A stretch of 64,000 nt of DNA from Escherichia phage vB_EcoM-UFV11. Both the position numbers and the translations under genes were made by a program. Location: sequence record OP555982.1; one strand, written 5' to 3'. Shown here piece after piece: positions 41,601 through 64,000 of this stretch; within the stretch, counting starts at the first letter, position 1; each line of letters opens with the position of its first letter. The notes under the pieces were generated by a model, which was given only the letters and a program-made list of their open reading frames with translations, was not told where the DNA came from and did not search any database.

Positions 41601-43414
41601 TGGTGTTTAACCCTATGCATGATTTCTTTATTTTTGCCGAGATTAAATCCGCGTTCGTTCGGATTTCCCAAATAACCACATGTTCTTCTTATTGTGTTCA
41701 TCTTTTTAGGATCAGTTTCTCCACAAATAGAACAAACAAATCCGTTTTCAGTAGGAGTCATTTCATGGGTACTTCCACATGTAAAACATTTATCTACTGG
41801 CATATTAACACCAAAATAATCTAAATGTTGTGCAGCATAATCCCATACGGCCTCAAGACCCTTTAAGTTATTTTTCATATCAGGAAGTTCAACATAAGAA
41901 ATGTGGCCGCCTGTCGCAATGAAATGATATGGTGCTTCGCGAGAAATCTTTTCAAACGGAGTAATATTTTCTTCTACTGAAACATGGAAACTGTTAGTGT
42001 ACCAACCTTTATCGGTAACATCCTTTACACTTCCATATTTTTCGGTATCAAGTTTACAGAAGCGATAACAAAGGTTTTCAGCAGGAGTAGAATACAAACT
42101 AAAAGCAAACCCAGTTCTTTCAGTCCACTGTTTAAGACGAGCATTCATTTTAGTTAAAATTTCCTGTCCAATATCACGACCGACAAGAATATTCAATTCG
42201 TGAATACCAATGTATCCTAGAGACACTGAACTTCTGCCATTTTTAAATAACTCAATTATATCGTCATCAGGTTTAAGACGAACCCCGAATGCACCTTCTT
42301 GATAAAGAATAGGAGCAACAGTCGCTTTAACTCCTTTTAAGGAACTAATTCTACACATCAAAGCTTCAAAACATAAATCCATTCGTTCATTGAATAATTC
42401 AACAAATTTCTGTTCATTGAACTGTGTTCCAATATAAGAATCTAATGCGATACGAGGAAGATTCAGTGTTACAACACCGAGATTATTACGTCCATCAAGA
42501 ATTTCATTGCCAGTCGAATCTTTCCATACGCTCAAGAAACTACGACAACCCATTGGAGAAACAGGAATAGATGAGCCGGTGATAGCTTTATTGTTCTTAG
42601 CCGAAATAATATCAGGATACATTCTTTTGCTTGCGCACTCTAGAGCAAGCTGTTTAATATCATAGTTCGGATCGTCTTTATAAAGATTAACACCTTCTTC
42701 AACGAACATAACAAGCTTAGGGAAAATAGGAGTTATCCCATCACGACCAAGACCTTTAATACGATTTTTCAGAATTGCTTTCTGAATCATTCGTTCAGTC
42801 CAGTCAGTTCCTGTACCAAATGTAATTGTTACAAAAGGTGTTTGTCCGTTTGAGCTAAAGAGAGTATTTACTTCATATTCATAAGCTTGGAATGCATCGT
42901 ATACATCTTTTTCTGTTTTAGATTGAGCATAATTCAACGCATCAGCGATTTGCCATTTTTCTGCATCCTCAATATGTTTTGCATAGGTGCGTTTAACATA
43001 AGGAGAAAGTACTTTATCTACATTAGCAAAAGTCGTTCCGCCGTATTGATGGGAAGCAACCTGTGCAGTAATTTGTGCCATAATTGCAGTAGCAACACCG
43101 ATTGATTTAGGAGTTTCAATCTGTGCATTACCAAGCTTAAATCCGTTCTCAAGCATTCCTTTTAAATCTACTAAACAACAATTAGTAAATGGAAGAGCAG
43201 GGGAATAATCAATATCGTGGAAATGAATAATTCCGCTTTCATGCGCTTTCATAATAAAAGACGGGACCATATTTTTGGCAATGTGTTTAGACACAATACC
43301 AGCCATAAGGTCCCGTTGAGTTGGAAAAACACGAGAATCTTTATTAGCATTCTCGTTTAAAAGGTCTTTATTAGTTTTATGAATCAATCCTTCAATTTCT
43401 TTTTCAATTGTCAT
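41597..43414 (-). CDS. nrdD: anaerobic ribonucleotide reductase NrdD (605 aa), uninterrupted
   Basis: single 605-aa ORF; C-terminal zinc ribbon and glycyl-radical region RRTCGYLG. Confidence 0.95.
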   Translation of the reverse strand: MTIEKEIEGLIHKTNKDLLNENANKDSRVFPTQRDLMAGIVSKHIAKNMVPSFIMKAHESGIIHFHDIDYSPALPFTNCCLVDLKGMLENGFKLGNAQIETPKSIGVATAIMAQITAQVASHQYGGTTFANVDKVLSPYVKRTYAKHIEDAEKWQIADALNYAQSKTEKDVYDAFQAYEYEVNTLFSSNGQTPFVTITFGTGTDWTERMIQKAILKNRIKGLGRDGITPIFPKLVMFVEEGVNLYKDDPNYDIKQLALECASKRMYPDIISAKNNKAITGSSIPVSPMGCRSFLSVWKDSTGNEILDGRNNLGVVTLNLPRIALDSYIGTQFNEQKFVELFNERMDLCFEALMCRISSLKGVKATVAPILYQEGAFGVRLKPDDDIIELFKNGRSSVSLGYIGIHELNILVGRDIGQEILTKMNARLKQWTERTGFAFSLYSTPAENLCYRFCKLDTEKYGSVKDVTDKGWYTNSFHVSVEENITPFEKISREAPYHFIATGGHISYVELPDMKNNLKGLEAVWDYAAQHLDYFGVNMPVDKCFTCGSTHEMTPTENGFVCSICGETDPKKMNTIRRTCGYLGNPNERGFNLGKNKEIMHRVKHQ

Positions 43415-49350: not shown

Positions 49351-50259
49351 TTAAGATTTAAGTAAATCAACAATTTTAATTAATTTTTCACGCTCAGATT
49401 TAGCTTTACTACTCAATCCAGATAGTCTGAAAATTTCATCGTCATACTGTTGAATAGAAATATTTAGCTCTTCAATTTGCTTATTAAAATAATCAATTTG
49501 CTCAGAATGTTTTTCATTACTGCGAACTGGTATAGGGTTTGTAGGCAATTTAGTTGAACTAGATTCATCCGGGCGATAAATTAAAATACAACTTGAACCA
49601 ATTGGACATTTTGCACCAGATGAATATTCTAATGTTCCGGCTTCTTTTAAAACTTCAAAAGCTAAACAGAGATGATGCCCCATATTAACATAATCTGTAG
49701 AGCGAGCTCTGATGTAATAATCATCTCCGCGAATACTAAATTTAAAGCATTTAAGGTCTTCTGTATTATTGGTCTTAAAAATCATTTGTTTATCTAGACC
49801 TTTAGCTAATCGAGCGCCTAATGCTAATAATCGTCGTTGATTTTCCCACAAATCTGCGATCATTTGGTCAAATGATAATTTCGGCATTAGTCGACCATAA
49901 AGGTCATATCCTTTATTATAATTACGAAGGATTTCACTCGCGTTAATACGAGACAATGCTCCAATTTTATTAAGGGCTTTCATAATGCGATTAGATAAAC
50001 CCATTCCAGACCCGTTTGTTCGCTGCAAATGTTTTTCTAATCCAAATCCAATATCAACTTTAAACTTATCTAAAATTTCTGCATGAACATCTCTGTCAAT
50101 AACATTCAAATCCAAAGTTGGGTTAAATCTATGAAAAAATTTATCTGGCTCTCCACGACGAAGTACAGTCCATTCATTCATTTTTTTATTAACTAAAGAT
50201 TTAATTACTGTATTGACATTATTAATTACTACTGACATATTTTCCTCACTCAATTTCAA
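49351..50259 (-). CDS. hypothetical protein, C-terminal coiled coil (set 4 of 4)
   Basis: 302-aa ORF. Confidence 0.55.
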   Translation of the reverse strand: MKLSEENMSVVINNVNTVIKSLVNKKMNEWTVLRRGEPDKFFHRFNPTLDLNVIDRDVHAEILDKFKVDIGFGLEKHLQRTNGSGMGLSNRIMKALNKIGALSRINASEILRNYNKGYDLYGRLMPKLSFDQMIADLWENQRRLLALGARLAKGLDKQMIFKTNNTEDLKCFKFSIRGDDYYIRARSTDYVNMGHHLCLAFEVLKEAGTLEYSSGAKCPIGSSCILIYRPDESSSTKLPTNPIPVRSNEKHSEQIDYFNKQIEELNISIQQYDDEIFRLSGLSSKAKSEREKLIKIVDLLKS

Positions 50260-50653
50260 TTTTACTAAATATACAGAATATGATGGAAAAGACTATATAA
50301 GCACCACAAACAGATTGAACTAATACCATTCCAAAGAACCAAACAATATTATCAAACCATGTCTGTTTTACGTCGAAAGGACGTAAACTTACAGTAATAT
50401 TATCACCTTTTTCTATTGAAGAATACATCTCTGGGGAAATATATTCACTAAATCTATAACCGTCTTTGAGTTCATATACAGCAATAAACGATAAACTAGA
50501 CCCCTTTCCTTGTGTTCCTGTAATAGTATTAACTACAGTAACATCATAATCTTTATAATGCATATAATCATTAATTGCGTAATAACCATATGCAACTACT
50601 ACACATAAACAACATATCAATAAATTCAATCTTTTAATTATCAACTGTTTCAT
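50246..50653 (-). CDS. hypothetical membrane protein
   Basis: 135-aa ORF with N- and C-terminal TM segments. Confidence 0.5.
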   Translation of the reverse strand: MKQLIIKRLNLLICCLCVVVAYGYYAINDYMHYKDYDVTVVNTITGTQGKGSSLSFIAVYELKDGYRFSEYISPEMYSSIEKGDNITVSLRPFDVKQTWFDNIVWFFGMVLVQSVCGAYIVFSIIFCIFSKIEIE

Positions 50654-50708
50654 AATAATCTCAATTAAAAGGGCTTAGAACCATTATACCATCCTTGGTA
50701 TAAAGCGG

Positions 50709-51236
50709 TTATGCGAGTACCGTCTTTAACCGTTCTTCAAACTTCCGAAGAGTATTCTGGCGTTCAGCTCTTTGCTTTTTGTAAGTTTCAATACGCTCTG
50801 AAATGAGAGTGTATCGTTCATTTACTGATTCTTTCATAAAATCAGGAATTTCACGAGAAGCTTTAATCTCGTCAAATTTATCAATAACAGCTTGCTCTTC
50901 AGCAATTAAGTTATCATACATCAAAATATCTTTCTTGATGAACTCAATATCTTCTTGAGTTACACGAGATAATTTAAATGCTTTATCCTTTTTGTACTGT
51001 TCGTTAGTATCACGAGACCAGTGTAATGTACGATTTTTATTCGTATTCTTATAAATTTCTACAATACCAATATCATCAATAATAACGATCCAATTCCAAC
51101 GGGATTTGTAAATTTGTCCTCCATCAACTGTGATTTCACCTCCGATTGAGATGTCATTAAAGAACTTGCTTTGTGCTTCTGATTTAAATTTACCATCGTT
51201 GTAATTTACCAAGTTGAAAATATCTTTAGCGTTCAT
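50709..51236 (-). CDS. hypothetical protein
   Basis: ATG at 51236 downstream of promoter; ORF-track start is inside the promoter leader. Confidence 0.5.
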   Translation of the reverse strand: MNAKDIFNLVNYNDGKFKSEAQSKFFNDISIGGEITVDGGQIYKSRWNWIVIIDDIGIVEIYKNTNKNRTLHWSRDTNEQYKKDKAFKLSRVTQEDIEFIKKDILMYDNLIAEEQAVIDKFDEIKASREIPDFMKESVNERYTLISERIETYKKQRAERQNTLRKFEERLKTVLA

Positions 51237-51265
51237 TTTCTGTTCCTCCGTAGTTGATAGTTGTA

Positions 51266-51295
51266 TAGTACCACAGAGGAACAGTCTTGTAAACA
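51266..51295 (-). promoter_or_regulatory. T4-type early promoter
   Basis: minus strand GTTTACAAGACTGTTCCTCTGTGGTACTAT. Confidence 0.5.
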
Positions 51296-51296
51296 A

Positions 51297-51599
51297 CTAA
51301 AAGAAACTTCTTTCACAATTTTTTCCACTGAACCACGCGCTCACTGCTTTCTTAGTCTCAGGAGCAGTGTTATCCATAAACCATTCAAAGGCAGCCTTTT
51401 TATGATTCTGGAGGGCTTCTCGGGCTTTAATCTGCTCACGGTCTATTAACACTAACATATGAGCCTTTCTTGTCACCATGGGCTTCTTATGATTTTTTGA
51501 ATATTCCCAATCATTTGTCCATCGCATCGTTGTTGCGAATTGAAGTACAGCTTCTTTAATTTTAGTTTCGTAAATTTCACGAGCCTTTGAGTATAACAT
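51297..51599 (-). CDS. hypothetical protein
   Basis: ATG at 51599 with SD GGAGG. Confidence 0.5.
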   Translation of the reverse strand: MLYSKAREIYETKIKEAVLQFATTMRWTNDWEYSKNHKKPMVTRKAHMLVLIDREQIKAREALQNHKKAAFEWFMDNTAPETKKAVSAWFSGKNCERSFF

Positions 51600-51700
51600 T
51601 ACTACCTCCATTTACCAGTTTAATTCTAGTCATCTTTTTGATGGCAGTCCATATAATCTATTTCTGAACTGCCTTTTTATCTTAGAAGGCCTCTTATGAA

Positions 51701-52669
51701 TTATTTCAGAAGAGTAACCTCAGCGATTTCTTCCCAACCGTTTTTGTCGGTCATAATAAAGTCAGCAAGATAAAGAGCAGTACGCAGTGAAACATTGCGT
51801 AAACGATTAACATTGACTTTCATCCATGATAATGCTTTATAAGTTTCTTCATCAGAAAGACCGCGCTTTTGCATCATGTCAGTTGAAAGAATAACATCTT
51901 CAACCCTGACCATAATTTCTTCATTAGTGTGAACACCCAAATCCAAATAAACTGAGCGGGACACTAATGCTTGTAAATGTGGAGCAAGTTTAGTACCACG
52001 GTCTAATTCGCGGTCAATGTCAACGTTTGTGATAAAAACAATCGTTCCTTTAAATTCAAACTCACGCTCAATGCCTTTTTCTTCTAAGTAAGAAGATGCA
52101 GTGCTCCAGCAGACTTTACGGGTCTCTCCAGTGTCCAGAGCAGCTTTCAGAAGATTAAGAATGTCCATATCAGAGAAAACATCCACATCATCAATCAAAA
52201 GGACAGAATTCTCTTCACGATTATTCCAAAGCTGCTCATAAAGACCAATACCAGAGATTTTACCATTAATGCTTTTATATTCAATGTATCCAATATCATT
52301 TGCTTTATTTAAAGCTTTATCTAAAGAATACGTTTTACCAATACCCGCCGCACCAGAGATAATTAATGAACGAATGTTTCCGTTAATAATACCATTCGTC
52401 ATCATTCCCATAACATTAAATCTTTTATTAATGCGGGTTTTCATATCTTCATATGATTCTTTAACTTCTTCAACTTTTACACCATCATATGAAATGTCTG
52501 ATTTGTAAACCCAAACACCGCGACGTTTACCGTCAATTTCAACAAAAACTTTACCATCTCCTTGTGCATCTACTGGGGCATTATCAGGGAACCACTCACC
52601 TAAGAGTTCAAAAGTTCCAGAGATTTCTTTGCCAAAGTAGATACCCTTATTGATAGTTACAGTTTTCAT
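51701..52669 (-). CDS. P-loop NTPase (AAA-like)
   Basis: ATG at 52669 after leader GGAGAATAAAATG; Walker A GAAGIGKT, Walker B VLLIDDVD. Confidence 0.6.
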   Translation of the reverse strand: MKTVTINKGIYFGKEISGTFELLGEWFPDNAPVDAQGDGKVFVEIDGKRRGVWVYKSDISYDGVKVEEVKESYEDMKTRINKRFNVMGMMTNGIINGNIRSLIISGAAGIGKTYSLDKALNKANDIGYIEYKSINGKISGIGLYEQLWNNREENSVLLIDDVDVFSDMDILNLLKAALDTGETRKVCWSTASSYLEEKGIEREFEFKGTIVFITNVDIDRELDRGTKLAPHLQALVSRSVYLDLGVHTNEEIMVRVEDVILSTDMMQKRGLSDEETYKALSWMKVNVNRLRNVSLRTALYLADFIMTDKNGWEEIAEVTLLK

Positions 52670-52703
52670 TTTATTCTCCAAATCCGTATCAGTTGATAGT
52701 TGT

Positions 52704-52733
52704 ATAGTACCATAAAGCTTTATGCTTGTAAAC
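52704..52733 (-). promoter_or_regulatory. T4-type early promoter with conserved leader
   Basis: minus strand GTTTACAAGCATAAAGCTTTATGGTACTAT. Confidence 0.55.
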
Positions 52734-52764
52734 TGTTTTGTGAAAAAATTTTTGAAATAAAAAA

Positions 52765-52782
52765 GGGAGCCCGAAGGCTCCC
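52765..52782 (-). terminator. hairpin GGGAGCC-UUCG-GGCUCCC plus U-run
   Basis: 7-bp stem, UUCG loop, TTTTTT after it on minus strand. Confidence 0.6.
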
Positions 52783-52784
52783 TA

Positions 52785-53798
52785 TCATTTATAATAACTT
52801 CGGTGGTTTTCAAGATAGACCTTCTCAAGGAAGTCATCCCAGAAACCCATGTCTACTTTTTGCTGCATACCGTTCTTAGAAGCTTCAGTAGATGCTGCTT
52901 CTACTTGATCGACCACATCTTCCAAAAACTCTTGAACTGTTTTAAATGGATGTTTACCCAACTTCACGTCGAGAATAAATGGAGCGTCTTGAAGTGGATA
53001 AACTAAGTCACCAGTTTTGTAAATTTCCAATAGTTGAAGTCCACCACGACAGGCATGGCTCAGAGCTTTCCAGTCAATACCTTCATTGGCTTCGGCCTTA
53101 CGAGCACGTTCACCATATTCAGCATCTAATTTGTTCAGTGACTGCTTAAGCTCAATAAGAGAAAGCGTTGTCTGATATTTACGACCCAACACAGTGTAGA
53201 ACGTTTGTGGGCCTGTTTTCTCATGATTATGGAACACCCATTCACAGAATTCGTTTTCTGGAAGACGATGCTTAATATCTTCAATTTTAGTGCGACGTTG
53301 TCCTTGTGTTCCATCTTCTCGGTAGACATTCCGTTGATCAGGAATTTGATTAACTACTTTCAACACATCACGTAATGCAGCCAAACGAGAACCCTTGACA
53401 CCGTATTTAGAAGCTTGCTTGCGAACATATCCTAAATAGGATTTCATGTTAGTCGTATAAAAACGAGAACGATTGTCTTGAATAAACTTCCACACATCAG
53501 GCAAATCAGATTTAACCACTAGTTCAGGTGGAGTGTGAAGCATATCCAATGCTACAGTTTCACCATCTGCTGCTAATTTAAAGAAATACTTAAGACTATA
53601 CAATTCGTGGTCAATATCATCTTTAGTGTTTTTAGATGATGTGTTGTTAGTGTTTTTACTCATGTGCTCTTTGACATTTCCAATAAGAATATCGCGAGCA
53701 GGAGGAACAAAGATTTCTTTAAAATCTACATCAGATTCTGGAGTAGAAGTTCCATAAAGATGACTACCAAAATAGCTTTTCATTACTGTTTTCATCAT
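52785..53798 (-). CDS. putative polymerase-beta-type nucleotidyltransferase
   Basis: 337-aa ORF; N-terminal GS-x11-DVD motif (GSHLYGTSTPESDVDF), later acidic residue near LDMLH, helical C-terminal domain. Confidence 0.5.
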   Translation of the reverse strand: MMKTVMKSYFGSHLYGTSTPESDVDFKEIFVPPARDILIGNVKEHMSKNTNNTSSKNTKDDIDHELYSLKYFFKLAADGETVALDMLHTPPELVVKSDLPDVWKFIQDNRSRFYTTNMKSYLGYVRKQASKYGVKGSRLAALRDVLKVVNQIPDQRNVYREDGTQGQRRTKIEDIKHRLPENEFCEWVFHNHEKTGPQTFYTVLGRKYQTTLSLIELKQSLNKLDAEYGERARKAEANEGIDWKALSHACRGGLQLLEIYKTGDLVYPLQDAPFILDVKLGKHPFKTVQEFLEDVVDQVEAASTEASKNGMQQKVDMGFWDDFLEKVYLENHRSYYK

Positions 53799-54256
53799 TC
53801 AGCCTTATATTCAATAACAGGACATACTTTAGCTTTACGGGCTTTTAAAAATTCGACGATAATAGATTTCTTGGGTTGAATAGGAGGTAAACCTTTATAC
53901 GCCCTATCAATATTTTCTACATGTAAAGCATAATCCTTTTTCCATTTATAATCTTTATATTTTTCATGCAGTTGTGCAGGAATAACAAATGAACCAATAA
54001 TAAGTAAAACAAGCAAAATGGCAAGTATAAATGCCGATGGAATAAGAGTCCATAAACTACCAAAAATAAGCCATTTCTGTATGATTTCTGCGCAGATAAT
54101 AGTTAGACCTGCGAGTATAGTACATCCGAAAAAAGAAACGAAAAATGTAGGGATAACAATAGACCAAAAGTATGCACACAGTGTCTTAGGTCGTTTCCAT
54201 TCGTCGTTAAACAGTTTGAATAATTTATAGTGCCAAGAGTTTTCATTAATAATCAT
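53795..54256 (-). CDS. hypothetical multi-pass membrane protein
   Basis: 153-aa ORF with ~3 TM segments; stop overlaps nucleotidyltransferase ATG (ATGA). Confidence 0.55.
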   Translation of the reverse strand: MIINENSWHYKLFKLFNDEWKRPKTLCAYFWSIVIPTFFVSFFGCTILAGLTIICAEIIQKWLIFGSLWTLIPSAFILAILLVLLIIGSFVIPAQLHEKYKDYKWKKDYALHVENIDRAYKGLPPIQPKKSIIVEFLKARKAKVCPVIEYKAE

Positions 54257-54258
54257 AA

Positions 54259-54780
54259 TTATCCTTTCATTGAAGGTGTAACAGTTGTTAAATACTTAAT
54301 CATAGCTTCAGCTTCTGATTTTGATAATGAAATTTCTCCATTGTTTTGACGAATAGAAATAAAATCCGGATGACGGTCACCACCAGCTTTTAAAACACAC
54401 ATATAAGTATCAGTTTCATCTTCAATATCTGAAATGATTGAAGCAGTTCCGCATGAATGTGGTTTTTGATAAATCAATACAGCTTTTCTTCCACCATTTG
54501 ACTGTTCATAGGCTTTTAATACATCAAACAAATCAGTTCTTTTATCAATAGCTAAAATGTTATTTTCATCTTCAATGTTAAATCCTTCGGATACTTCATA
54601 AAGTGTTACCCATAAATCACCGATGTCAATAACAGCATTTCCTTTTCCACGACTTTCAAGAATATGACAAATTTTCTTTATTTCGTCATAACTCATTTTA
54701 ATAATATCATCTCCTTGAATAAGGAAGATGTCATTTTTAAATTTAACGCGAATTAAACCGCTTTCACTAGAAATAAACAT
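54259..54780 (-). CDS. hypothetical protein, paralog of 54787-55344
   Basis: 173-aa ORF; C-terminal SIRQ...EAEAMIKYLTTVTPSM matches neighbour. Confidence 0.5.
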   Translation of the reverse strand: MFISSESGLIRVKFKNDIFLIQGDDIIKMSYDEIKKICHILESRGKGNAVIDIGDLWVTLYEVSEGFNIEDENNILAIDKRTDLFDVLKAYEQSNGGRKAVLIYQKPHSCGTASIISDIEDETDTYMCVLKAGGDRHPDFISIRQNNGEISLSKSEAEAMIKYLTTVTPSMKG

Positions 54781-54786
54781 ATTTCC

Positions 54787-55344
54787 TCACTTTGAAATCA
54801 TAGTTGGAATAACAGAATCAAGATAAGTTTTTAGTGCAATAGCTTCGTCTTTGTTTAATGTAATGATATGTGATCGAAAATCGTCAATTTGACGAATAGA
54901 TACTACATCTCCCTCTTCATAGCATTTTGAAACATTTAAAATAGTTTCATCATTCTGATTACAGGAGTTAGTAATAATAGCATTACATTTTTTAAACCAT
55001 TTTAAATTATGTTTTCTTTTAGTAGAATCATAAAAATATTTAATGTTAGTTATAAAATTATCCCAATTATTAATTGATAAGCACATTGACTCGCTTTTAA
55101 TATTAAATCCTGGGCATGAAGAATAAAAATGAATTTTATGCTCATCATTAATGCTTACAATTTTATCAGTGTAAGCATATTCAATTTGGGTTAAACGAAC
55201 AATTTCACTAGGCGTAAAATATAACATGTCGTCTTCTTGCGTCAAACGATACATGTTATTTACTTTTTCGATCGCTAATTCACCAAAAAGCACACTATCT
55301 TCTAATACTAATCGTTTCATATTGATTCTCTTCGACTCACTCAC
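54787..55344 (-). CDS. hypothetical protein, paralog of 54259-54780
   Basis: 185-aa ORF; GTG start with SD GAGGAG. Confidence 0.5.
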   Translation of the reverse strand: MSESKRINMKRLVLEDSVLFGELAIEKVNNMYRLTQEDDMLYFTPSEIVRLTQIEYAYTDKIVSINDEHKIHFYSSCPGFNIKSESMCLSINNWDNFITNIKYFYDSTKRKHNLKWFKKCNAIITNSCNQNDETILNVSKCYEEGDVVSIRQIDDFRSHIITLNKDEAIALKTYLDSVIPTMISK

Positions 55345-55478
55345 AATTACATACTCCTCTGAATCATATCAATAATGTTGTTCACCAGATTATAAGTAAA
55401 CATTGGGTAATTATATTGAATCATCACATACACAACAAACAAAACTTTCATTCTCTTCTCCTTGGCAGTTGACAAGAT

Positions 55479-55509
55479 TACTATACCATAACCTTGCCAA
55501 CTTGTAAAC
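55479..55509 (-). promoter_or_regulatory. T4-type early promoter
   Basis: minus strand GTTTACAAGTTGGCAAGGTTATGGTATAGT. Confidence 0.5.
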
Positions 55510-55511
55510 CA

Positions 55512-55784
55512 TTAAATGACGTTTTCAATAAAATTCTGAAGCTTTGTGTGAGCATCAACCATGATTTTCATTTCTTCTTTGGCGAAAGCTGTACCTCTTT
55601 CCCGAGAAGAACACTCATAGTCAGAAACTGCATTAGCATATTCTTCAATTAGTTTCATTAAAAACATCTGCTTTTCAGTTTTCATTATTCCACCTAATCC
55701 CCGAGAAGAACACTCATAGTCAGAAACTGCATTAGCATATTCTTCAATTAGTTTCATTAAAAACATCTGCTTTTCAGTTTTCAT
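55512..55784 (-). CDS. hypothetical protein with internal 33-aa tandem duplication
   Basis: 90-aa ORF; MKTEKQMFLMKLIEEYANAVSDYECSSR occurs twice. Confidence 0.5.
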   Translation of the reverse strand: MKTEKQMFLMKLIEEYANAVSDYECSSRGLGGIMKTEKQMFLMKLIEEYANAVSDYECSSRERGTAFAKEEMKIMVDAHTKLQNFIENVI

Positions 55785-55798
55785 TATTCCACCTAATC
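55601..55798 (-). repeat. perfect 99-bp tandem direct duplication (2 copies)
   Basis: 55601-55699 identical to 55700-55798; each copy carries SD GGTGGA plus ATG. Confidence 0.85.
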
Positions 55799-55968
55799 AT
55801 TTCAAGATATTGAACTAACTTAGCTTTAGATTTATCCAAATCCTTTTTAGCTGCTTCTATACCGTCGTATGAATATCCTTCACAATGCTCAACTGCTAAT
55901 TGATATGAATCTATTTCAACATCACGTGCTAATTTAATGATTTTTTCAAACTGTTCGTGTGTCAGCAT
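55774..55968 (-). CDS. hypothetical protein
   Basis: 64-aa ORF. Confidence 0.45.
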   Translation of the reverse strand: MLTHEQFEKIIKLARDVEIDSYQLAVEHCEGYSYDGIEAAKKDLDKSKAKLVQYLEMIRWNNEN

Positions 55969-55970
55969 AC

Positions 55971-56174
55971 TTAAACTCTCGTATTGTGATCGATAATTTC
56001 ATCAAGAAACATATCTAAAGCTTCCACAGCATTATCAACTTTAGCTTCAAGTTCATCAATACCTTTATTTGCAATGCCTGACGAAAACCAAGCAAAGTCG
56101 CTAAGTTCCTCATCTGCTTTACGAATTAAAGCTACCAATTCCTTAATTTTATCCGCTTGTTCGATACTAATCAT
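55971..56174 (-). CDS. hypothetical protein
   Basis: ATG at 56174 with SD GGTGGA, overlaps upstream stop. Confidence 0.45.
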   Translation of the reverse strand: MISIEQADKIKELVALIRKADEELSDFAWFSSGIANKGIDELEAKVDNAVEALDMFLDEIIDHNTRV

Positions 56175-56362
56175 TATTCCACCACATATGAAAGAGAGAA
56201 TATTGCACATGCCATGTGAGTTGCAACTTCATCACACATATTATAACGTTTCTTAAGAAGTTCTACAAGTTTTTCACTAGTAACTTCATCCATGTTGACG
56301 AAAAAATCACCATTAATGATGACGTAGATATTTCCTTCTTGATTGAGTGCTTCAATTTTCAT
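56174..56362 (-). CDS. hypothetical protein
   Basis: ATG at 56362 with SD GAGGAG; ORF-track start lies within promoter. Confidence 0.45.
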
Positions 56363-56390
56363 GATGTTCTCCTCTTTATCCGATAGTTGT

Positions 56391-56420
56391 ATAGTATAAC
56401 AGCTCAAACGGAAAGTAAAC
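56391..56420 (-). promoter_or_regulatory. T4-type early promoter
   Basis: minus strand GTTTACTTTCCGTTTGAGCTGTTATACTAT. Confidence 0.5.
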
Positions 56421-56435
56421 CGGTAAAATGAAAAA

Positions 56436-56453
56436 AGTCTCCCGAAGGAGACT
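56436..56453 (-). terminator. hairpin AGUCUCC-UUCG-GGAGACU plus U-run
   Basis: 7-bp stem with UUCG loop; same cassette layout as 15047-15112. Confidence 0.6.
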
Positions 56454-56457
56454 AATG

Positions 56458-56844
56458 TTATTCGAGGGAAAGAAGATACTTACTCTGGTAAAACATCCCA
56501 GTAATATCATCTATCGTGCTTTGGATGGCTGGAGGCATTTCTTTATAAATGCTGTTAGATTGGTCTAGTATGCGATCAATCATTTTAATTGTGTCGGTAG
56601 GAAGTTTACTGGCATCTGGAATTGAAGGCGTGTATTTTCTACCAGAATACCCCAAATATTGCTCACCAAATTTATCAATCAAATCTGGCAACTCGGAAAA
56701 AATAAAATCGTATGCTTTGTGTCTAGCATAACTTTTAGTTTCAAAATGTGCAGAATGAAAATAAGCTTGTGCAGCCATTAATAAACCTAAGTATTCATCT
56801 GCCTTTGAAGGTTTTCCACTTTGTGAAAAGTCGCTGAATTTCAT
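56458..56844 (-). CDS. hypothetical protein (rI.-1 position)
   Basis: 128-aa ORF translationally coupled to rI. Confidence 0.55.
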
Positions 56845-57134
56845 TCAGTCTCCAATTTAATGTTCATAATTCTAGCGTATGATTGTGCCATCTCCGCGCC
56901 TCGTTCTATACATTCAAAATCAGAAGAGCACGGGTCATTTTTATAGGTCGTTCTCATAAAACTATAGAATTGTTCAGACGATTCTACGCTTTTATTTTCA
57001 AAAAGTGTATAAACGTGCCTAATACCAGATTCCATAAATTTATCAAAATGAGGATCGACATTCGCTTCAATTGATGGAGATAAAACAAATGACAATCCTA
57101 GCATGGCAAAAAGTGCCGTTGCTTTTAAGGCCAT
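56841..57134 (-). CDS. rI: lysis inhibition regulator RI (97 aa)
   Basis: 97-aa ORF MALKATALFAMLGLSFVLSPSIEA with N-terminal signal-anchor. Confidence 0.9.
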   Translation of the reverse strand: MALKATALFAMLGLSFVLSPSIEANVDPHFDKFMESGIRHVYTLFENKSVESSEQFYSFMRTTYKNDPCSSDFECIERGAEMAQSYARIMNIKLETE

Positions 57135-57146
57135 AAAGGCCTCCTA

Positions 57147-57359
57147 TCATTTTTGTCCTGTATTTACTTTATGCCGATGCACGGCCTTAACTTTATCAAG
57201 GTATTTTTCAAAATTTCGCAATCTAGTATAGTCTGCCGGAGATTGGTTGAGTGATACTTCTCGACGCAAAGCTGAAATGATATTTCCAACTTCCCTACGA
57301 ATTTCATCTAATTGAAGCACAGTAAGATTGCGAAGTTGCTTTTCAGTTAATTGTAGCAT
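57147..57359 (-). CDS. hypothetical protein (rI.1 position)
   Basis: 70-aa ORF. Confidence 0.5.
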
Positions 57360-57401
57360 ATATACCCCTTTAGTTAGATAAACCTATTTATAACTTTTGC
57401 A

Positions 57402-57983
57402 CTAACCGAGCTTTTTAGTTAATTCATTCCAATGTTTTCTACACAAAGAAACATAAATTTCATCACCAATACAGATTTGATTACCTTCTTTAACTGGTGT
57501 TCCATCTTCCATTAATCGAGCTGTCATAATCGCTTTTTTACCGCAATGACAAACTGCCTTTAGTTCAATAAGTTTATCTGCAATCGCTAAAAGTTCTTTA
57601 GAACCTTCAAACAATTTTCCAGCGAAATCAGTCCTTAATCCATAAGCCATAACAGGAACATTATATGTATCAACAATTCGACTTAATTGATGCACCTGTT
57701 CAGTTTTTAAAAACTGAGCTTCATCTACAAATACGCAATGAATATCTTTTTGTGCTTCAGCCCATTTATAGAACTCGAAAATATCCATATCATCTGTAAT
57801 AATATTCGCTTCCTGTTTAATTCCAATGCGAGAAACAACTTCACAGACAGAATCGCGAGTATCAATAGCAGGCTTAAGAACTAATACACTCATTCCACGT
57901 TCTTTATAATTATGTGCAGCAGTCAAAAGAGAAGCAGATTTTCCAGCATTCATTGCTGCATAAGTAAAAATTAAACTCGCCAT
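57402..57983 (-). CDS. tk: thymidine kinase (193 aa)
   Basis: 193-aa ORF; P-loop NAGKSAS and zinc site CHCGKKA. Confidence 0.93.
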   Translation of the reverse strand: MASLIFTYAAMNAGKSASLLTAAHNYKERGMSVLVLKPAIDTRDSVCEVVSRIGIKQEANIITDDMDIFEFYKWAEAQKDIHCVFVDEAQFLKTEQVHQLSRIVDTYNVPVMAYGLRTDFAGKLFEGSKELLAIADKLIELKAVCHCGKKAIMTARLMEDGTPVKEGNQICIGDEIYVSLCRKHWNELTKKLG

Positions 57984-57992
57984 ATCACCTTC

Positions 57993-58178
57993 TTAAAGCG
58001 TATTCACATAAGCTATTAATTCATTTTCTTTCTTATCAAACCGATCAGCAAATTCTTCCTGCTGCTCGGGAGATAGCGGGCCGTATTCATCATAAAAGGT
58101 GTTTGCTTCTATATGCTCATCTAGAAGTTCATGGATAAGCTCAAACAATTTATCTTTTTGTTCTTTGCTTAGACTCAT
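57993..58178 (-). CDS. hypothetical acidic protein
   Basis: 61-aa ORF. Confidence 0.5.
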   Translation of the reverse strand: MSLSKEQKDKLFELIHELLDEHIEANTFYDEYGPLSPEQQEEFADRFDKKENELIAYVNTL

Positions 58179-58348
58179 ATATTAATTTCCAGGAGTTTTA
58201 AAATAATTCGCTTTTGCTTAAATATTTCCATAGTTAAATGACCAGTATCTTTTTGACCGATTCCAATGGCAAAACCTTTATTAACAGCGAGTTCAATTAA
58301 ATTATCAAGCTCACGTAACACTTCGTATTGTAACTCAAAACTATTCAT
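58175..58348 (-). CDS. hypothetical small protein
   Basis: 57-aa ORF coupled at both ends (ATGA overlaps). Confidence 0.35.
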   Translation of the reverse strand: MNSFELQYEVLRELDNLIELAVNKGFAIGIGQKDTGHLTMEIFKQKRIILKLLEINI

Positions 58349-58557
58349 TTTGGTTTACCTTCTTTAACGAAATCAGGATAAGGGTAAAATCCTGAATAAA
58401 ATCCTTCACCTTTATGATTGATGCATCCTTTATTAGAACAATAGCACCAATAATCGAAATCACAAGCCATTTCATCGTTGCATAAAGCAAAAACAACCGG
58501 CCACTTACACTTTTCACAGTGGGCATTTTTAAGAATACTAGTTTGGCTCATAACCAT
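58345..58557 (-). CDS. hypothetical Cys-rich protein
   Basis: ATG at 58557; CEKCKW...CNDEMAC...CYCSNKGC. Confidence 0.45.
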   Translation of the reverse strand: MVMSQTSILKNAHCEKCKWPVVFALCNDEMACDFDYWCYCSNKGCINHKGEGFYSGFYPYPDFVKEGKPK

Positions 58558-58760
58558 GTAACCTTTAAGCAATATTCTTCTACATGTTGTTTACGACCTT
58601 TCTTATCAATAAAGGTATATTCAACGAATGTTCCAATGTAGTCTTTATCTACATCATGTGGACTATTAATTGGACATTTAGTACGGCAAATGCGTTCCCA
58701 TTGACGAATAATTTCCACTTTGTTTTTAGGATCAAACGGATGTGGGTAATGTACTTTCAT
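58548..58760 (-). CDS. hypothetical protein
   Basis: 70-aa ORF. Confidence 0.45.
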   Translation of the reverse strand: MKVHYPHPFDPKNKVEIIRQWERICRTKCPINSPHDVDKDYIGTFVEYTFIDKKGRKQHVEEYCLKVTWL

Positions 58761-59211
58761 AATCCACCACTATTAAATCAATATCAGGAGTAAACATGTC
58801 GATTAATTTAGAAACCTTATCCCAATCGCCGCCAGCAATACCACAACCTATGCGTGGAATGTAAATTACTGGTTTAAACAAAAGGGTTTCTGCCTGTAGA
58901 TTTAATTCTATCATGCAGTTTACTAAAGCACCATAATCAAGATTAGGACCTGGTTCGTATTGCGTATACAAGTTATAACATATGCCAAAACCATTAGGTT
59001 TATGTTTAAAAACAATAGACATATCGCCTAATTTATCACGAGAACCGTACTCGGTAGTGGTTTTATCTATTTCTAAAATTTTGGGATAGGCTCTTGCTAA
59101 TTGACCAGCTACACCACTGCCCATTGTATGAAAACAATTGCACCCGTGCGCAATAATATTACCTTCAAGAAAGAGGGCGACAATATCGCCCTTGATATAT
59201 TTTACAATCAT
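58732..59211 (-). CDS. putative macro-domain protein (ADP-ribose binding/processing)
   Basis: 159-aa ORF; HGCNCFHTMGSGVAGQLA and IGCGIAGGDW motifs resemble macro domains. Confidence 0.5.
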   Translation of the reverse strand: MIVKYIKGDIVALFLEGNIIAHGCNCFHTMGSGVAGQLARAYPKILEIDKTTTEYGSRDKLGDMSIVFKHKPNGFGICYNLYTQYEPGPNLDYGALVNCMIELNLQAETLLFKPVIYIPRIGCGIAGGDWDKVSKLIDMFTPDIDLIVVDYESTLPTSV

Positions 59212-59555
59212 CTAGTACTCAATCCTCGATTATAAGAATCTACCAAACGGTCAACCATTGAATGACAAGCGGCTTTATCTTTCTCCTCCGCAACTGAACA
59301 TTCTAAGGTATTCCACTTTTTAGCATATCGTTTTAATAATGTATCGTTTTTGTATCTGCTTGATTTATCTCTTTCTCCGTCTTTATATGCATATATTAAT
59401 TTCTGCGCAAATTCAGCTTGGCATGCTTTATTTTTCCCACAATAATCTGCCGCAGTGCGGTTCACATACTCCCTAATTTCAGTATATGATGTATCTGCTG
59501 ACGCATAAGCAGAAAATGAAATTAATCCTATACATAAAACCAAAATTTTAGTCAT
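59208..59555 (-). CDS. hypothetical secreted protein
   Basis: 115-aa ORF with signal peptide MTKILVLCIGLISFSAYASA. Confidence 0.5.
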   Translation of the reverse strand: MTKILVLCIGLISFSAYASADTSYTEIREYVNRTAADYCGKNKACQAEFAQKLIYAYKDGERDKSSRYKNDTLLKRYAKKWNTLECSVAEEKDKAACHSMVDRLVDSYNRGLSTR

Positions 59556-60093
59556 TTACTATTTCCAAAAGTTTATTATTTTTAAGGTAGTTAGCCTTTT
59601 CTAGGACTTCAGAAGCATATTTAGAACCTGCTTTAACATTCCATCCCGAATTATAAGAGGATATTGCTTTTCTTATATCGCCCTTATGTATATTTAACCA
59701 ATAAGAAAGTTCAATGTACGCCCAGGAAGCTGAATTGGATCGTTTATTCAACATTCTTTTTATTTCAGCATCGGTCATATTATAACCAAGTTCCTTAACT
59801 CTTGCTCGCATAGTAGGCAAATAATTTTGGAACATTCCATAAGCGTGATGCTTTGGTTTAGATTTTAAATTAACTCCGCCAGAGCTTTCTTGCCATAAAA
59901 TAGCAGCCATTATATGACCTAATCCGCTCTTGTGGATATTTTTATGTGTTTTATATTTTCCATCCTTAGAAAACTGTTCCCCGAATTGATACGCGTAACG
60001 CATGTTATCGAGTTGGACATTACTGAAAGTATGCTCGGAGCTATGTGCCATCATTGAAATGGCCAATAGACCAGCGAGTAGTGCTTTTCTCAT
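59548..60093 (-). CDS. putative secreted lytic transglycosylase-like protein
   Basis: 181-aa ORF; signal peptide; WQESSGG...YGMFQ resembles SLT catalytic motif. Confidence 0.5.
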   Translation of the reverse strand: MRKALLAGLLAISMMAHSSEHTFSNVQLDNMRYAYQFGEQFSKDGKYKTHKNIHKSGLGHIMAAILWQESSGGVNLKSKPKHHAYGMFQNYLPTMRARVKELGYNMTDAEIKRMLNKRSNSASWAYIELSYWLNIHKGDIRKAISSYNSGWNVKAGSKYASEVLEKANYLKNNKLLEIVND

Positions 60094-60100
60094 GCTTACC

Positions 60101-60562
60101 TCATTGAGTTTTAATTACTGCTTTAGAAGCCTTTCCTGGTAAACGACGACTGTTAATAATTGCCATCCTGCATTGAAGCGACGGGTCTTTGAACTTCGCA
60201 TTAGGTTTACAAACTGTAAATCCAAGCCAAAGATTTCCATCTGTGATTTCTAAACGTCCAGGACGATATTCAACCCCATCAATAAAATCCTCGTCAATGT
60301 CAGGACGCGGAGGCATACTCAGGAATTCATTAACTTCTAAAACATGGTCTTTTATTTTATGGAATAATTCAAAAACGTATGTCTCATCAATCTCCCGTTG
60401 AATTGCGCGATCAAGAAGATGTTGAGAATATTTTAGATGAAACGATGAGACCCCTGCTGCTTTTGATGCCTCACGAATCTCATTGTTAATTTGACGAAAC
60501 TCCGACTCAAAGTGACGACGAAGCTTATTTCGACGGATAAAAACTTCTGTGTTGATAGTCAT
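60101..60562 (-). CDS. regB: endoribonuclease RegB (153 aa)
   Basis: 153-aa ORF MTINTEVFIRRNKLRRHFESEFRQINNEIREASK. Confidence 0.9.
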   Translation of the reverse strand: MTINTEVFIRRNKLRRHFESEFRQINNEIREASKAAGVSSFHLKYSQHLLDRAIQREIDETYVFELFHKIKDHVLEVNEFLSMPPRPDIDEDFIDGVEYRPGRLEITDGNLWLGFTVCKPNAKFKDPSLQCRMAIINSRRLPGKASKAVIKTQ

Positions 60563-60589
60563 GTTATTCTCCTCTTAACTGATAGAAAA

Positions 60590-60619
60590 ATTATACCACA
60601 GTCAAGAGGAAAAGTAAAC
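60590..60619 (-). promoter_or_regulatory. T4-type early promoter
   Basis: minus strand GTTTACTTTTCCTCTTGACTGTGGTATAAT upstream of regB. Confidence 0.55.
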
Positions 60620-60621
60620 AG

Positions 60622-60942
60622 TTATTCTTTAAATCTAATCAATTTATTCATAGACTTTGAAACTTCTGTACGAACCTCATGTAGATTTTTGAGTTGTTCA
60701 AGACGCTGCGTATAGTAAGCAATTTCATCTTCTTCGAGACAGTCCTGTGAATCTTCTTTAAGATAGCGTGCATAGTCCTGGAAAGCGTTACGGATTACTT
60801 CCTGGAAATCATCAAGACTTTGAATTTTCTTAGGAGCAGCAGATACACGACGAGGGGCAGTATAATACTCATAACCAAACCCTGCGCTTAATTGAGCCAT
60901 TAGTATTTTTCCTCTGGTTGGAACACAGCACGACAAGCCCAC
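60622..60942 (-). CDS. hypothetical protein
   Basis: 106-aa ORF. Confidence 0.5.
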
Positions 60943-61202
60943 ATACTGGCTTCTTTGAGTTTCGTTTTAGCAATAGTTAACTGATCGAGGCTTTCGGCGT
61001 AATTCTTCGCGAGTTCATCATCTTCACAGCTATCAAATGCTTCCCAAAATTCATCGTATAAAGCATCAAAGATAAGTCCTAAACGAACTTCAGCGTCTTT
61101 AATAGCATTTACTTTACCGATTTTTTCGTCGGTATGTGGCTTATAACCTTTAATATCTTCAATCATATTTGACTTCCTCACCAGTACATAAATCGTATTC
61201 AA
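60900..61202 (-). CDS. hypothetical acidic protein
   Basis: 100-aa ORF. Confidence 0.5.
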
Positions 61203-61380
61203 CTAAACGAATAGGTTCATGAATGCCATATCCCTGAACAGAAATTTCTGTCGTAGGATAAATTCCATCAATATCACCCATATTCCAGGCTTCGTTAAAT
61301 TGCTGTTCGCCTGAATTACTAAACCACTCGGCGAAAGCATTTAGCACATCTTTAGAACCTTCAATAATTATCTTTGCCAT
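61159..61380 (-). CDS. hypothetical protein
   Basis: 73-aa ORF. Confidence 0.45.
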   Translation of the reverse strand: MAKIIIEGSKDVLNAFAEWFSNSGEQQFNEAWNMGDIDGIYPTTEISVQGYGIHEPIRLVEYDLCTGEEVKYD

Positions 61381-61742
61381 TACAAACTCTCGGTAAAGGT
61401 ACGAGCGATAACGTCGCGCTGCTGTTCCGGAGTCAGAGAGTTAAAGCGAACTGCATAACCGGATACACGGATGGTCAGCTGCGGATATTTTTCCGGATGC
61501 TTAACTGCATCTTCCAGAGTTTCACGACGCAGAACGTTAACGTTCAGGTGTTGACCACCTTCAATTTTAACTGTAGGCTGTTGCTCAATTTCAATTTCAC
61601 GGGCATGCAAACCGTAGAAAATTTCTGGGTCTACAAAAGAGTCCTCTTTAAAAGTTTTAGAGACAATAATTCGTGCTTGAATACCATCTTCAAAATAAAT
61701 AGTACCTTTATGCGTGCCTTCAAGAATTTGATATGCTTTCAT
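61380..61742 (-). CDS. autonomous glycyl radical cofactor (GrcA/YfiD-like)
   Basis: 120-aa ORF; glycyl-radical motif [13 protein letters not shown]; GC-rich 3' half. Confidence 0.85.
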
Positions 61743-61749
61743 ATAAACC

Positions 61750-62079
61750 TCAATTAGAAAATAAATTTATCCAAGATTGTTCTTTAATTAAAAATGGCTC
61801 AGAATCATATGCCATTAAACTCTGCGTGATTAGTCCTTTAAAAGGTCCATCAATAAATTCCATGGTAAAATATGGAATTTTATTCATTAGCCGTGCGTTA
61901 GGAGCAGTACATAAAACTCTGCATCCTTTGAATACGCCTTTTTGTAATTTGTATTGCTTAGGATAAAATTCGCTCAAGACGTTGTTATTTGCCAAAATTT
62001 CAAAATGATTCACCAATTTATTTTTAATAGTTTTTGGCGAAAAATAAAGATATTCGAAAAGTTGCGTGTCTGTCATCAT
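61750..62079 (-). CDS. hypothetical protein
   Basis: ATG at 62079 overlaps upstream stop (ATGA). Confidence 0.45.
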
Positions 62080-62615
62080 TGCATTCCGATTATGAAAAAC
62101 TGTGGACGAGTAATACCACCAATGCAACATTTAATATTACAGCAGCAGTGTACAGTTTCAATATGGACACTATAAATCTTATCCATATCAGGAGATTTGA
62201 CAGGTTCATCAATTATATACAAAATTCGCGAAAGCGATAAACCTCTGAACTTGCTTCCTTTATTACCAATAAAACTGCGCACAGAATCAGCAAATAAACG
62301 AAAACGTATATCATCATTAGAATAACGCGAAAATTCCTTTTTAATGTTATTTGAAGAAATTTTAGCGTAAGCTGAAGTATTAGAAAGAACAATAACTGTT
62401 CCGCCATCATACAACCAATTAGCGGCAAAATTAGTTACTGCAGTTGATTTACCGGATTGACGTCCACCATCTAGTCGAAGTGTGCAATACTGCTTAAGTA
62501 AGTCTTCAAATGGTGGGATATAATCGTTTTTACAAATTTCTTCTACTCTAGCGTCAGAATGGTGTGTAAAAGCATTCATCAGGGATAGATAAGGACCAGT
62601 TAAAAATGTTCTCAT
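62076..62615 (-). CDS. small P-loop NTPase
   Basis: Walker A GGRQSGKST, Walker B ILYIIDEP; start set at ATG 62615 with SD AGAGAGAA. Confidence 0.45.
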   Translation of the reverse strand: MRTFLTGPYLSLMNAFTHHSDARVEEICKNDYIPPFEDLLKQYCTLRLDGGRQSGKSTAVTNFAANWLYDGGTVIVLSNTSAYAKISSNNIKKEFSRYSNDDIRFRLFADSVRSFIGNKGSKFRGLSLSRILYIIDEPVKSPDMDKIYSVHIETVHCCCNIKCCIGGITRPQFFIIGMQ

Positions 62616-62768
62616 TTTATTCTCTCTAAATTTGGGCCATTCCATGGCGCATGAATTGTCCATTTCTGTATTTACCCATTACCGCACTTGGGCTCGACCT
62701 TATTACAGGTTGGCGGGAATCCCTCACAGAATCATGAGGTCCAGCTTGTTCCCATATTTCTTATTTGC

Positions 62769-63242
62769 TTATTTGAATGATTTAACGTACTGAATAGAAC
62801 CTTTACTATTCACAAAGGCAATTTTACCATTTTTGTTATACATAGTAGCAGTACGTTGATAGCCATAAGTTTGTTTACCAGATTGATAACCAACTAATGC
62901 GAAATTATCTTCACCCATTTTATTCTGTTTAGCGCGAATGCGTTCATGACCATGTGCCATAAGAACCTTAGCATCACCAGTTGCAATGGACCGACGAGTT
63001 TTTTCATCTTCAACTGTATTAACAAAGTCGTCAAATGAATCAAATTTAGCATGAGATTTATTATACAGTTTTCCATCTACTGCATAATTATATCCTTGTA
63101 CATCCATCTCAACTTCTGTACCATCATCTAATACCGCAGTAATTTTCTGTCCTTTTTTAAATTTCAAAAGATCAGTAAAAGATTCAGCAATAATTTGAGA
63201 ATTAATAGCTGCTTCAGTAATAAATTCTTTATACGTTTTCAT
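62769..63242 (-). CDS. capsid internal protein (IPIII-like)
   Basis: 157-aa ORF; N-terminal MKTYKEFITEA as in T4 internal-protein targeting sequences. Confidence 0.65.
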   Translation of the reverse strand: MKTYKEFITEAAINSQIIAESFTDLLKFKKGQKITAVLDDGTEVEMDVQGYNYAVDGKLYNKSHAKFDSFDDFVNTVEDEKTRRSIATGDAKVLMAHGHERIRAKQNKMGEDNFALVGYQSGKQTYGYQRTATMYNKNGKIAFVNSKGSIQYVKSFK

Positions 63243-63258
63243 GTGTATCCTTTAATTT

Positions 63259-63576
63259 TTATTCTTTAGGGAAGTTTTTAGAATATGCATCATAAAGCTT
63301 ATTTCCAATACGGCGGAAAACTCTAGCCGCAAAACGATTTTCTGGGTTTTTAATCATGATTTGCATCATATAAGTACCCGCGTCAGAAAGAGCTTCTTCA
63401 TAGTACCCGTTAATTTCTTTAAGAGTCCTACGTTTACCACCAGGACCATCAACAGTGATTTTCCATTTACCTGTAGAAGTGCGACTTGGCGGTTCAACTT
63501 GTTCAATCCAGATATAACCGCCTTCTACACGCTGTCCTGCAACAGATTCTGCAATAAATTCTTTATACGTTTTCAT
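63259..63576 (-). CDS. capsid internal protein (IPII-like)
   Basis: 105-aa ORF; N-terminal MKTYKEFIAES; 5' DNA near-identical to neighbour. Confidence 0.65.
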   Translation of the reverse strand: MKTYKEFIAESVAGQRVEGGYIWIEQVEPPSRTSTGKWKITVDGPGGKRRTLKEINGYYEEALSDAGTYMMQIMIKNPENRFAARVFRRIGNKLYDAYSKNFPKE

Positions 63577-63612
63577 GTGTTTCCTTTAAATATTTTAATT
63601 AGTAACTGTGAA

Positions 63613-63643
63613 TATACTATCACAGTTTTAGGAGAAAGTAAAC
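63613..63643 (-). promoter_or_regulatory. T4-type early promoter
   Basis: minus strand GTTTACTTTCTCCTAAAACTGTGATAGTAT. Confidence 0.45.
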
Positions 63644-63647
63644 AACT

Positions 63648-64000
<353 letters not shown>

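Follow-up and report, generated by a model that had tools for sequence, protein, structure and literature searches.

The gene at positions 61380–61742 of the window, a term used here for the whole 64,000-nt stretch of Escherichia phage vB_EcoM-UFV11 (OP555982.1) that was analysed, is a known spare-part gene for pyruvate formate-lyase (PFL). Very probably it is a chimera, in which a 5′ half of phage lineage has been joined to a 172-nt tract copied from E. coli grcA by homologous recombination, a process that would have taken place in at least two independent events and is probably recurrent. At the level of sequence comparison, we regard four points as demonstrated: the gene is chimeric, its donor species is identified, the breakpoint is shared, and two events took place independently. 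The gene and its biochemical role are already known, for T4 at textbook level, and nothing new is claimed in that respect. The features on which the following account draws are listed below.

61380–61742, minus strand: coding sequence of the phage autonomous glycyl radical cofactor, complete, 120 codons plus TAA; ortholog of T4 vs.6 (Y06I).
61748–61751, minus strand: ribosome-binding site GAGG, read from the sequence, 5 nt upstream of the ATG and directly past the stop codon of the vs.7 ortholog.
61565–61742, minus strand: AT-rich 5′ half of the grcA gene (GC 0.34, GC3 0.22), delimited by alignment to E. coli grcA.
61393–61564, minus strand: host-derived tract, gene nt 179–350, covering residues 61–116 and part of 117; 172/172 nt identical to E. 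coli grcA.
61458–61460, minus strand: codon for Gly95, the predicted radical site in RVSGYAV, aligned to Gly102 of E. coli GrcA and Gly734 of PflB.
61380–61392, minus strand: phage-type 3′ tail (ACC GAG AGT TTG TAA), the last 13 nt, with four synonymous differences from E. coli.

The gene encodes a small, stand-alone protein of about 14 kDa that consists essentially of one glycyl-radical domain with RVSGY; the motif as a whole, with RVSGYAV, places the putative radical glycine at residue 95 of the 120 amino acids. Residues 60–101 match the Pfam family Gly_radical (PF01228, E = 2.5e-18), residues 22–120 match the NMR structure of E. coli GrcA (PDB 6OWR, E = 9e-42), and the radical domain aligns with residues 697–759 of PflB (1CM5/1H16) at E = 5e-26. 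Against the NCBIfam model for GrcA (TIGR04365) the protein scores 154.9 bits over its residues 20–120 (model positions 25–126), which lies under the equivalog cut-off of 170, a curated annotation threshold and not a biochemical definition; the score falls short because the N-terminal half has diverged. This half is ~33 % identical to that of E. coli GrcA, whereas residues 61–120 are identical to residues 68–127 of the host protein at all 60 positions. An earlier note on this DNA, made without database searches, had proposed a GrcA/YfiD-type stand-alone glycyl-radical protein whose C-terminal ~60 residues match E. coli GrcA, and both points are borne out, the former by the motif, Pfam and 6OWR matches, and the latter residue for residue. 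The identity of the gene with the known T4 gene vs.6 had not been recognised there.

The T4 ortholog, vs.6 (NC_000866, 63557–63919; RefSeq NP_049730, product GrcA), specifies a protein identical to that of the window at 118 of 120 residues, and there is 100 % nucleotide identity to the annotated 'autonomous glycyl radical cofactor' of the Tequatrovirus phage vB_EcoM-UFV09. Close copies of the gene occur in more than 750 phage records, and GrcA-like small proteins are widespread in enterobacterial phages. The surroundings are those of T4 (tk ... vs, vs.1, regB, vs.3–vs.8, internal proteins, e), with the phage grcA forming part of a long leftward gene run, in which position 61380 is both the last base of its TAA stop and the A of the ATG of the vs.5 ortholog (ORF 61159–61380). 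A scan of 60800–63300 for a dedicated promoter or terminator returned nothing above shuffled expectation.

With regard to function, PMC8683613, in its account of Wagner et al. (2001), names YfiD (the GrcA of E. coli) and T4 Y06I as the sole 'spare part' proteins with biochemical validation. As summarized there, once the PFL activating enzyme has put a glycyl radical on YfiD or Y06I, the protein combines with oxygen-cleaved PFL, and activity is restored in the complex. Residues 1–60 of YfiD are described as disordered and as helping to bind cleaved PFL, residues 61–127 as structured and possessing the fold of PFL 693–759, and oxygen cleavage of the same kind is said to hit all glycyl radical enzymes (PMC8683613). 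Given its 118/120 identity to Y06I, the window protein would be expected to repair oxygen-cleaved host PFL, as the T4 protein does in vitro. The host activase PflA would install the radical on Gly95, and the C-terminal domain would dock into host PFL that oxygen has cleaved at Gly734, standing in for the lost radical domain, whereby the conversion of pyruvate to acetyl-CoA and formate would be restored. T4 turns off host gene expression, and a phage-made spare part would therefore maintain PFL activity in an anaerobic or microaerobic host that becomes exposed to oxygen. Infected cells, unable to make host proteins, could thereby keep up fermentative energy and their formate supply, with a working PFL sustaining the supply of acetyl-CoA, ATP and formate. 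Repair of host PFL had been one of two options raised in the earlier note, and it is supported by the biochemistry of T4 Y06I, by the identity of the domain with that of host GrcA and by its alignment to PflB 697–759.

At the DNA level, the gene falls into two parts. Gene nt 179–350 (61393–61564) are identical to E. coli grcA at 172 of 172 positions, after which four synonymous mismatches follow within the last 13 nt, whereas the 5′ half of the gene shows ~50 % DNA identity to its host counterpart. There is likewise a compositional break within the gene, from GC 0.34 and GC3 0.22 in the 5′ part to GC 0.49 and GC3 0.44 in the 3′ part. The tract itself has a GC content of 0.494 against a mean of 0.345 (sd 0.041) for the 64-kb window; segments of 172 nt that are as GC-rich make up 0.02 % of all those in the 64 kb, and the single richest starts at 61391. 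GC-rich, host-like DNA had previously been suspected at about 61380–61560, and the signal proves stronger than supposed, since 61393–61564 is top-ranked in the 64 kb; nucleotide alignment to enterobacterial grcA and composition along the gene, two of the checks that had been suggested, yield the perfect match to E. coli and a non-uniform profile, respectively. Nearly the entire structured glycyl-radical domain lies within the tract. When the window was compared by megablast with 5,426 complete E. coli genomes, positions 1–50000 gave no match and positions 50001–64000 matched through the tract only, which also weakly (80 %) matches pflB. An Rfam scan of 60500–62800 at E ≤ 1 found no structured RNA, ruling this out as the cause of the base-perfect conservation.

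Conservation of this kind might also be sought in a single, ancient capture of the whole gene, after which extreme purifying selection kept the 3′ half host-like and the disordered N-terminal half drifted; the protein sequence of the radical domain is indeed highly conserved in all GrcA and PFL homologs. The identity, however, extends to every synonymous site (172/172), and under phage codon usage, as estimated from 46 long ORFs of the window, this peptide would be encoded by exactly these 56 codons with a probability of ~1e-27. Moreover, Karamvirus, Krischvirus and T5-like phages with the same conserved domain display only 72–78 % DNA identity, the match is to E. coli in E. coli phages and to K. 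pneumoniae in Klebsiella phages, and the breakpoint is sharp. An ancient capture is thus extremely unlikely, being refuted by the identity at synonymous sites.

The chimera accordingly has to be considered with respect to its donor. The 3′ part of the phage gene is identical to E. coli grcA at 181 of 186 positions, with every difference located in the tail. Amongst the grcA genes of 80 other species, the best match is 179/186, for a cryptic Escherichia lineage, with other genera reaching at most 168/186 and Salmonella and Klebsiella falling below this value; the donor is therefore E. coli itself. The grcA of K. aerogenes LR134122 is frameshifted and could not be used for comparison. In that record (LR134122.1, strain NCTC10006), the frameshift lies inside the radical domain and is probably a long-read assembly error.

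Bare identity, taken by itself, would also be compatible with transfer from phage to host, or with a tract that is host-DNA contamination or an assembly chimera, and it is the only observation that favours these options. The composition of the tract stands out from the rest of the phage DNA but is that normally seen in the host gene, which implies transfer from E. coli to phage. Host grcA shows a gradual species-to-species divergence across Enterobacterales and uniform composition in both halves, as in vertical descent. In addition, the chimera is in frame and has phage-specific sequence on both sides, and some 640 phage genomes, each sequenced independently, have it, the T4 reference and T2 among them. 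We consequently give the reverse direction and artefact virtually no weight.

The position of the junction was located by a three-sequence maximum chi-square test, with a Karamvirus copy as the phage parent and E. coli as the host parent, which places the break at alignment columns 198–207 (chi-square 71.3, permutation p ≤ 0.0002). This corresponds to the codon before EGGQHLNV, where conservation across all GrcA homologs begins, and it lies within seven residues of the boundary between the disordered and structured domains of YfiD. The suggestion that the gene had recently recombined with a host gene is strongly supported by this breakpoint together with the 172/172 nt that are specific to E. 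coli grcA.

A counterpart to the E. coli tract exists in phages of Klebsiella. The Jiaodavirus copy L086 combines a phage-type 5′ half with a 3′ part that is 96 % identical to K. pneumoniae grcA, versus 88 % to that of E. coli, and its breakpoint by maximum chi-square is at the same place as in the window gene. Jiaodavirus tracts as a whole show 96–97.6 % identity to K. pneumoniae grcA, with perfect runs of 107 nt (L086) to 140 nt (L119, from IMG/VR), and carry Klebsiella-specific codons for Leu and Glu. With the E. coli tract, 642 phage records share at least 95 % identity (373 at ≥99 % and 269 at 95–99 %), including T2, T4 and isolates made on Shigella, Yersinia, Salmonella, Citrobacter and Serratia, whilst 106 Klebsiella-phage records share 95–99 % with the K. 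pneumoniae tract. Each of the two phage groups is ~86–89 % identical to the host of the other group, the same value as for host versus host; between the two hosts, the GrcA domain differs at two residues. On these alignments, conversion from host to phage took place on at least two independent occasions, with E. coli as the donor in Tequatrovirus and Mosigvirus and K. pneumoniae in Jiaodavirus. Copies from Karamvirus, Slopekvirus-like, Krischvirus, T5-like and jumbo phages display 69–83 % nucleotide identity to host grcA, with longest perfect runs mostly of 20–35 nt and, in several cases, a low 3′ GC3 (down to 0.21); they represent an unconverted or long-ameliorated state.

Other records with grcA-like sequence were also encountered. 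In the T4-like metagenome contigs L112–L117 and L124 (IMG/VR), the grcA-like 3′ part is closest to grcA of Haemophilus/Pasteurellaceae (155/186 at best; L114 has 56 nt of unbroken identity), hinting that Pasteurellaceae phages may show the same host-related pattern. A further IMG/VR contig, L122, which matches a Yersinia grcA at 170/186, was rejected as a third conversion: it aligns to the phage protein as a bacterial GrcA does (residues 24–120, 71 %) and is therefore probably host DNA in a 'viral' contig. Two records labelled as plasmids also surfaced. The K. pneumoniae 'plasmid' CP125156.1 in PLSDB is 5.37 Mb long, contains chromosomal grcA and is evidently a mislabelled chromosome, and a 276-kb Klebsiella sp. 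'plasmid' (NZ_CP170105.1) also has a grcA copy.

The age of the E. coli tract can be gauged by comparing the window with the Mosigvirus-type copy L099. In the 5′ half, the two show 17 differences, of which 11 are synonymous (over 36.7 sites) and six nonsynonymous (over 140 sites), corresponding to a dN/dS of ~0.13 between Tequatrovirus and Mosigvirus-type copies. This half is conserved among T4-like phages, and on these counts the N-terminal region is evidently phage-evolved and under purifying selection. The 172-nt tract is without nucleotide differences between the window and L099, synonymous differences in tract codons amounting to 0–1 over 44 sites (Fisher p = 0.0009 versus the 5′ half). 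Ungapped comparison of the flanks between phages was uninformative because of indels. Those differences from E. coli that do occur in the tract are mostly private singletons of single phages, and no difference is fixed. By contrast, 375G and 378T (grcA numbering), located 4–7 nt past the tract, are common to nearly all compared phage copies from both Tequatrovirus and Mosigvirus. We conclude that the tract postdates the split of the Tequatrovirus and Mosigvirus-type genera, and that it has either been reset repeatedly from the host, or swept through the phages as a converted allele by phage–phage recombination.

The latter course, namely a single conversion from E. coli and subsequent spread through Tequatrovirus, Mosigvirus and relatives by recombination in co-infections, with no ongoing flow from the host, agrees with the presence of the E. 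coli tract in all E. coli T-even-type records (642 at ≥95 %). T-even phages also recombine freely among themselves, which likewise counts in its favour. It is at odds, however, with the zero fixed tract differences from the major E. coli allele when old fixed phage states are found only 4–7 nt away, and with end-points that vary between phages. At grcA positions 372/375/378/379 the tail haplotypes are C,G,T,T in the window, T,A,T,T in T4, T,G,T,C in L095 and T,A,C,C in E. coli, so that T4, the window and L095/L097 differ in the manner that varying conversion end-points would produce. The K. pneumoniae-derived tract of Jiaodavirus shows, furthermore, that the process can recur. One Tequatrovirus record from IMG/VR (L096; IMGVR_UViG_2974787500_000001, 579–750) bears on both readings, as its tract has 213G and 240C relative to the major E. 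coli allele; these are polymorphisms of an O157:H7 allele and of strain H9Ecoli, respectively, and are the two tract polymorphisms in the sampled E. coli alleles. A donor allele with both variants was found in none of the complete E. coli genomes, the best match being 170/172, and L096 is therefore suggestive only and no proof of separate donor alleles; the lack of an exactly matching donor is a point for the single conversion. Taken together, we consider a single conversion possible but unlikely. Since the tract is without fixed divergence whilst adjacent sequence has it, conversion is probably recurrent in E. coli phages. Somewhat more tentatively, it seems likely that the radical-domain half is continually overwritten by the chromosomal grcA of the lineage's host, forming a self-reinforcing gene-conversion hot spot and a record of the natural host.

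Recurrent conversion could proceed as follows. Host DNA fragments would recombine with the phage gene during infection via the conserved radical-domain segment, the ~20–35 nt perfect runs that unconverted copies share with the host being sufficient for rare initiation. Once converted, a copy would have ~175 nt of perfect homology, so that further conversion would be easy and the state self-reinforcing. The ends of the tract would be set where homology ends, at the diverged N-terminal half on one side, and at the stop codon and unrelated flanks on the other. Selection may help, in that the module must fit both host activase and host PFL. As only two residues distinguish the E. coli GrcA domain from that of K. 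pneumoniae, exact host matching would be needed only weakly, and the conversions may be near neutral.

The second option in the earlier note was repair of the phage's own class III ribonucleotide reductase. Its premise, that the phage encodes NrdD and the activase NrdG, is confirmed, with NrdD (41597–43414, minus strand) harbouring a Gly_radical domain and NrdG located at 41130–41600 on the same strand. If GrcA were a spare part for oxygen-cleaved, NrdG-activated NrdD rather than for host PFL, the co-occurrence of these genes in one window and the common oxygen cleavage of all glycyl radical enzymes (PMC8683613) would fit. However, BLASTP of the phage GrcA against the window's own NrdD gave a best E of 2.6, off the radical site, and in the absence of pairwise similarity direct NrdD repair has no sequence support. 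The radical domain is, moreover, identical to that of host GrcA and aligns to PflB 697–759 at E = 5e-26, and for Y06I the account in PMC8683613 gives only PFL rescue as demonstrated. Direct repair of NrdD is accordingly very unlikely. According to PMC11226230, which cites Mulliez et al. (1995) on this point, formate is the overall reductant of this NrdD group, the class III ribonucleotide reductases; phage grcA may therefore feed NrdD/NrdG indirectly. A metabolic link of phage GrcA to NrdD through formate would thus be more likely than a structural one.

Several neighbouring genes merit description in their own right. Two genes downstream of grcA, an 88-aa ORF (60900–61166, minus strand) is 94 % identical to T4 Vs.4 and matches the Pfam Acb2/Tad1 hairpin domain (E = 9e-20), which makes this Vs.4 ortholog a protein of the anti-CBASS cyclic-nucleotide sponge type. 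The vs.8 ortholog (62079–62727, minus strand) is in two pieces, which lie in different frames relative to T4 Vs.8 (residues 1–32 at 62727–62632 and 26–219 at 62663–62079), suggesting a frameshift, another start or a sequencing error; the 195-aa ORF of this region has a weak AAA_14 match only. In T4, denV sits between vs.8 and the internal-protein genes. A tblastn search with T4 DenV found no match anywhere in the 64-kb window, and endonuclease V is therefore absent from the T4 position (62663–63650). Two tandem ORFs (62769–63242 and 63259–63576, both minus strand) start with MKTYKEFI(T/A)E, a shared N-terminal leader like that of T4 internal proteins, with weak (30 %) similarity to T4 IpII in the first of them only; they look like divergent internal-protein alleles.

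No description of the host-identical tract was found in the full-text literature searched, although an earlier remark on the DNA identity (e.g. in Wagner et al. 2001 or the 2003 T4 genome review) is possible; for vs.6, the comparative T4-like genome paper of 2006 gives a Pfam match only. A 172-bp perfect host copy in phages that destroy host DNA, along with its Klebsiella counterpart, demonstrates natural homologous exchange from host to T-even phage, and shows that such exchange can keep a segment of a phage gene locked to the host allele. The tract lends itself to tagging and provides a simple natural assay of gene conversion from host to phage, as well as a ready-made host-identifying signature. 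For BLAST-based host prediction it calls for caution, as the E. coli tract persists in Tequatrovirus isolates from Yersinia, Serratia and Citrobacter. In the protein itself, the catalytic module is locked to the host, whereas the N-terminal region has evolved in the phage, and the role of the latter in binding cleaved PFL is open to probing.

Amongst known systems, T4 Vs.6/Y06I is the closest, sharing the regB–vs–e neighbourhood and the same chimera, with a 3′ part that agrees with E. coli grcA at 182 of 186 positions. The T4 and window proteins differ by two amino acids (Q54 versus P and R73 versus H), and the host-identical tract of T4 extends ~6 nt further 3′ and has one nonsynonymous change. 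E. coli GrcA (YfiD) resembles the phage protein in being a stand-alone protein of ~14 kDa with the same radical motif, and in the identity of its C-terminal 60 residues and of 172 nt. The phage protein departs from it in its ~33 % identical N-terminal half and is 7 residues shorter, whilst the phage gene has an AT-rich 5′ half and a stop codon that overlaps the start of the next phage gene. The GrcA-like genes of T5-like (Tequintavirus), Krischvirus, Karamvirus and jumbo coliphages belong to the same family and have the conserved radical domain, but are without the host-identical tract.

The nearest precedent for the pattern of evolution is provided by psbA and psbD of cyanophages and their hosts, where recombination within the genes was recognised from uneven %G+C and from tests for recombination (Zeidner et al. 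2005; Sullivan et al. 2006, PMC1484495). In both cases a host-derived metabolic gene is carried by a lytic T4-like phage as a patchwork, with statistically supported exchange of segments (PMC1484495), and the phage grcA can be seen as a coliphage counterpart of psbA mosaicism. It is the cleaner of the two, however, in that, unlike psbA and psbD, it contains a single, sharply bounded tract that covers one structural domain and perfectly matches a named donor species, and displays parallel events in phages of two host genera. Its recipients differ too, for they are strictly lytic, hydroxymethylcytosine-modified coliphages that degrade host DNA.
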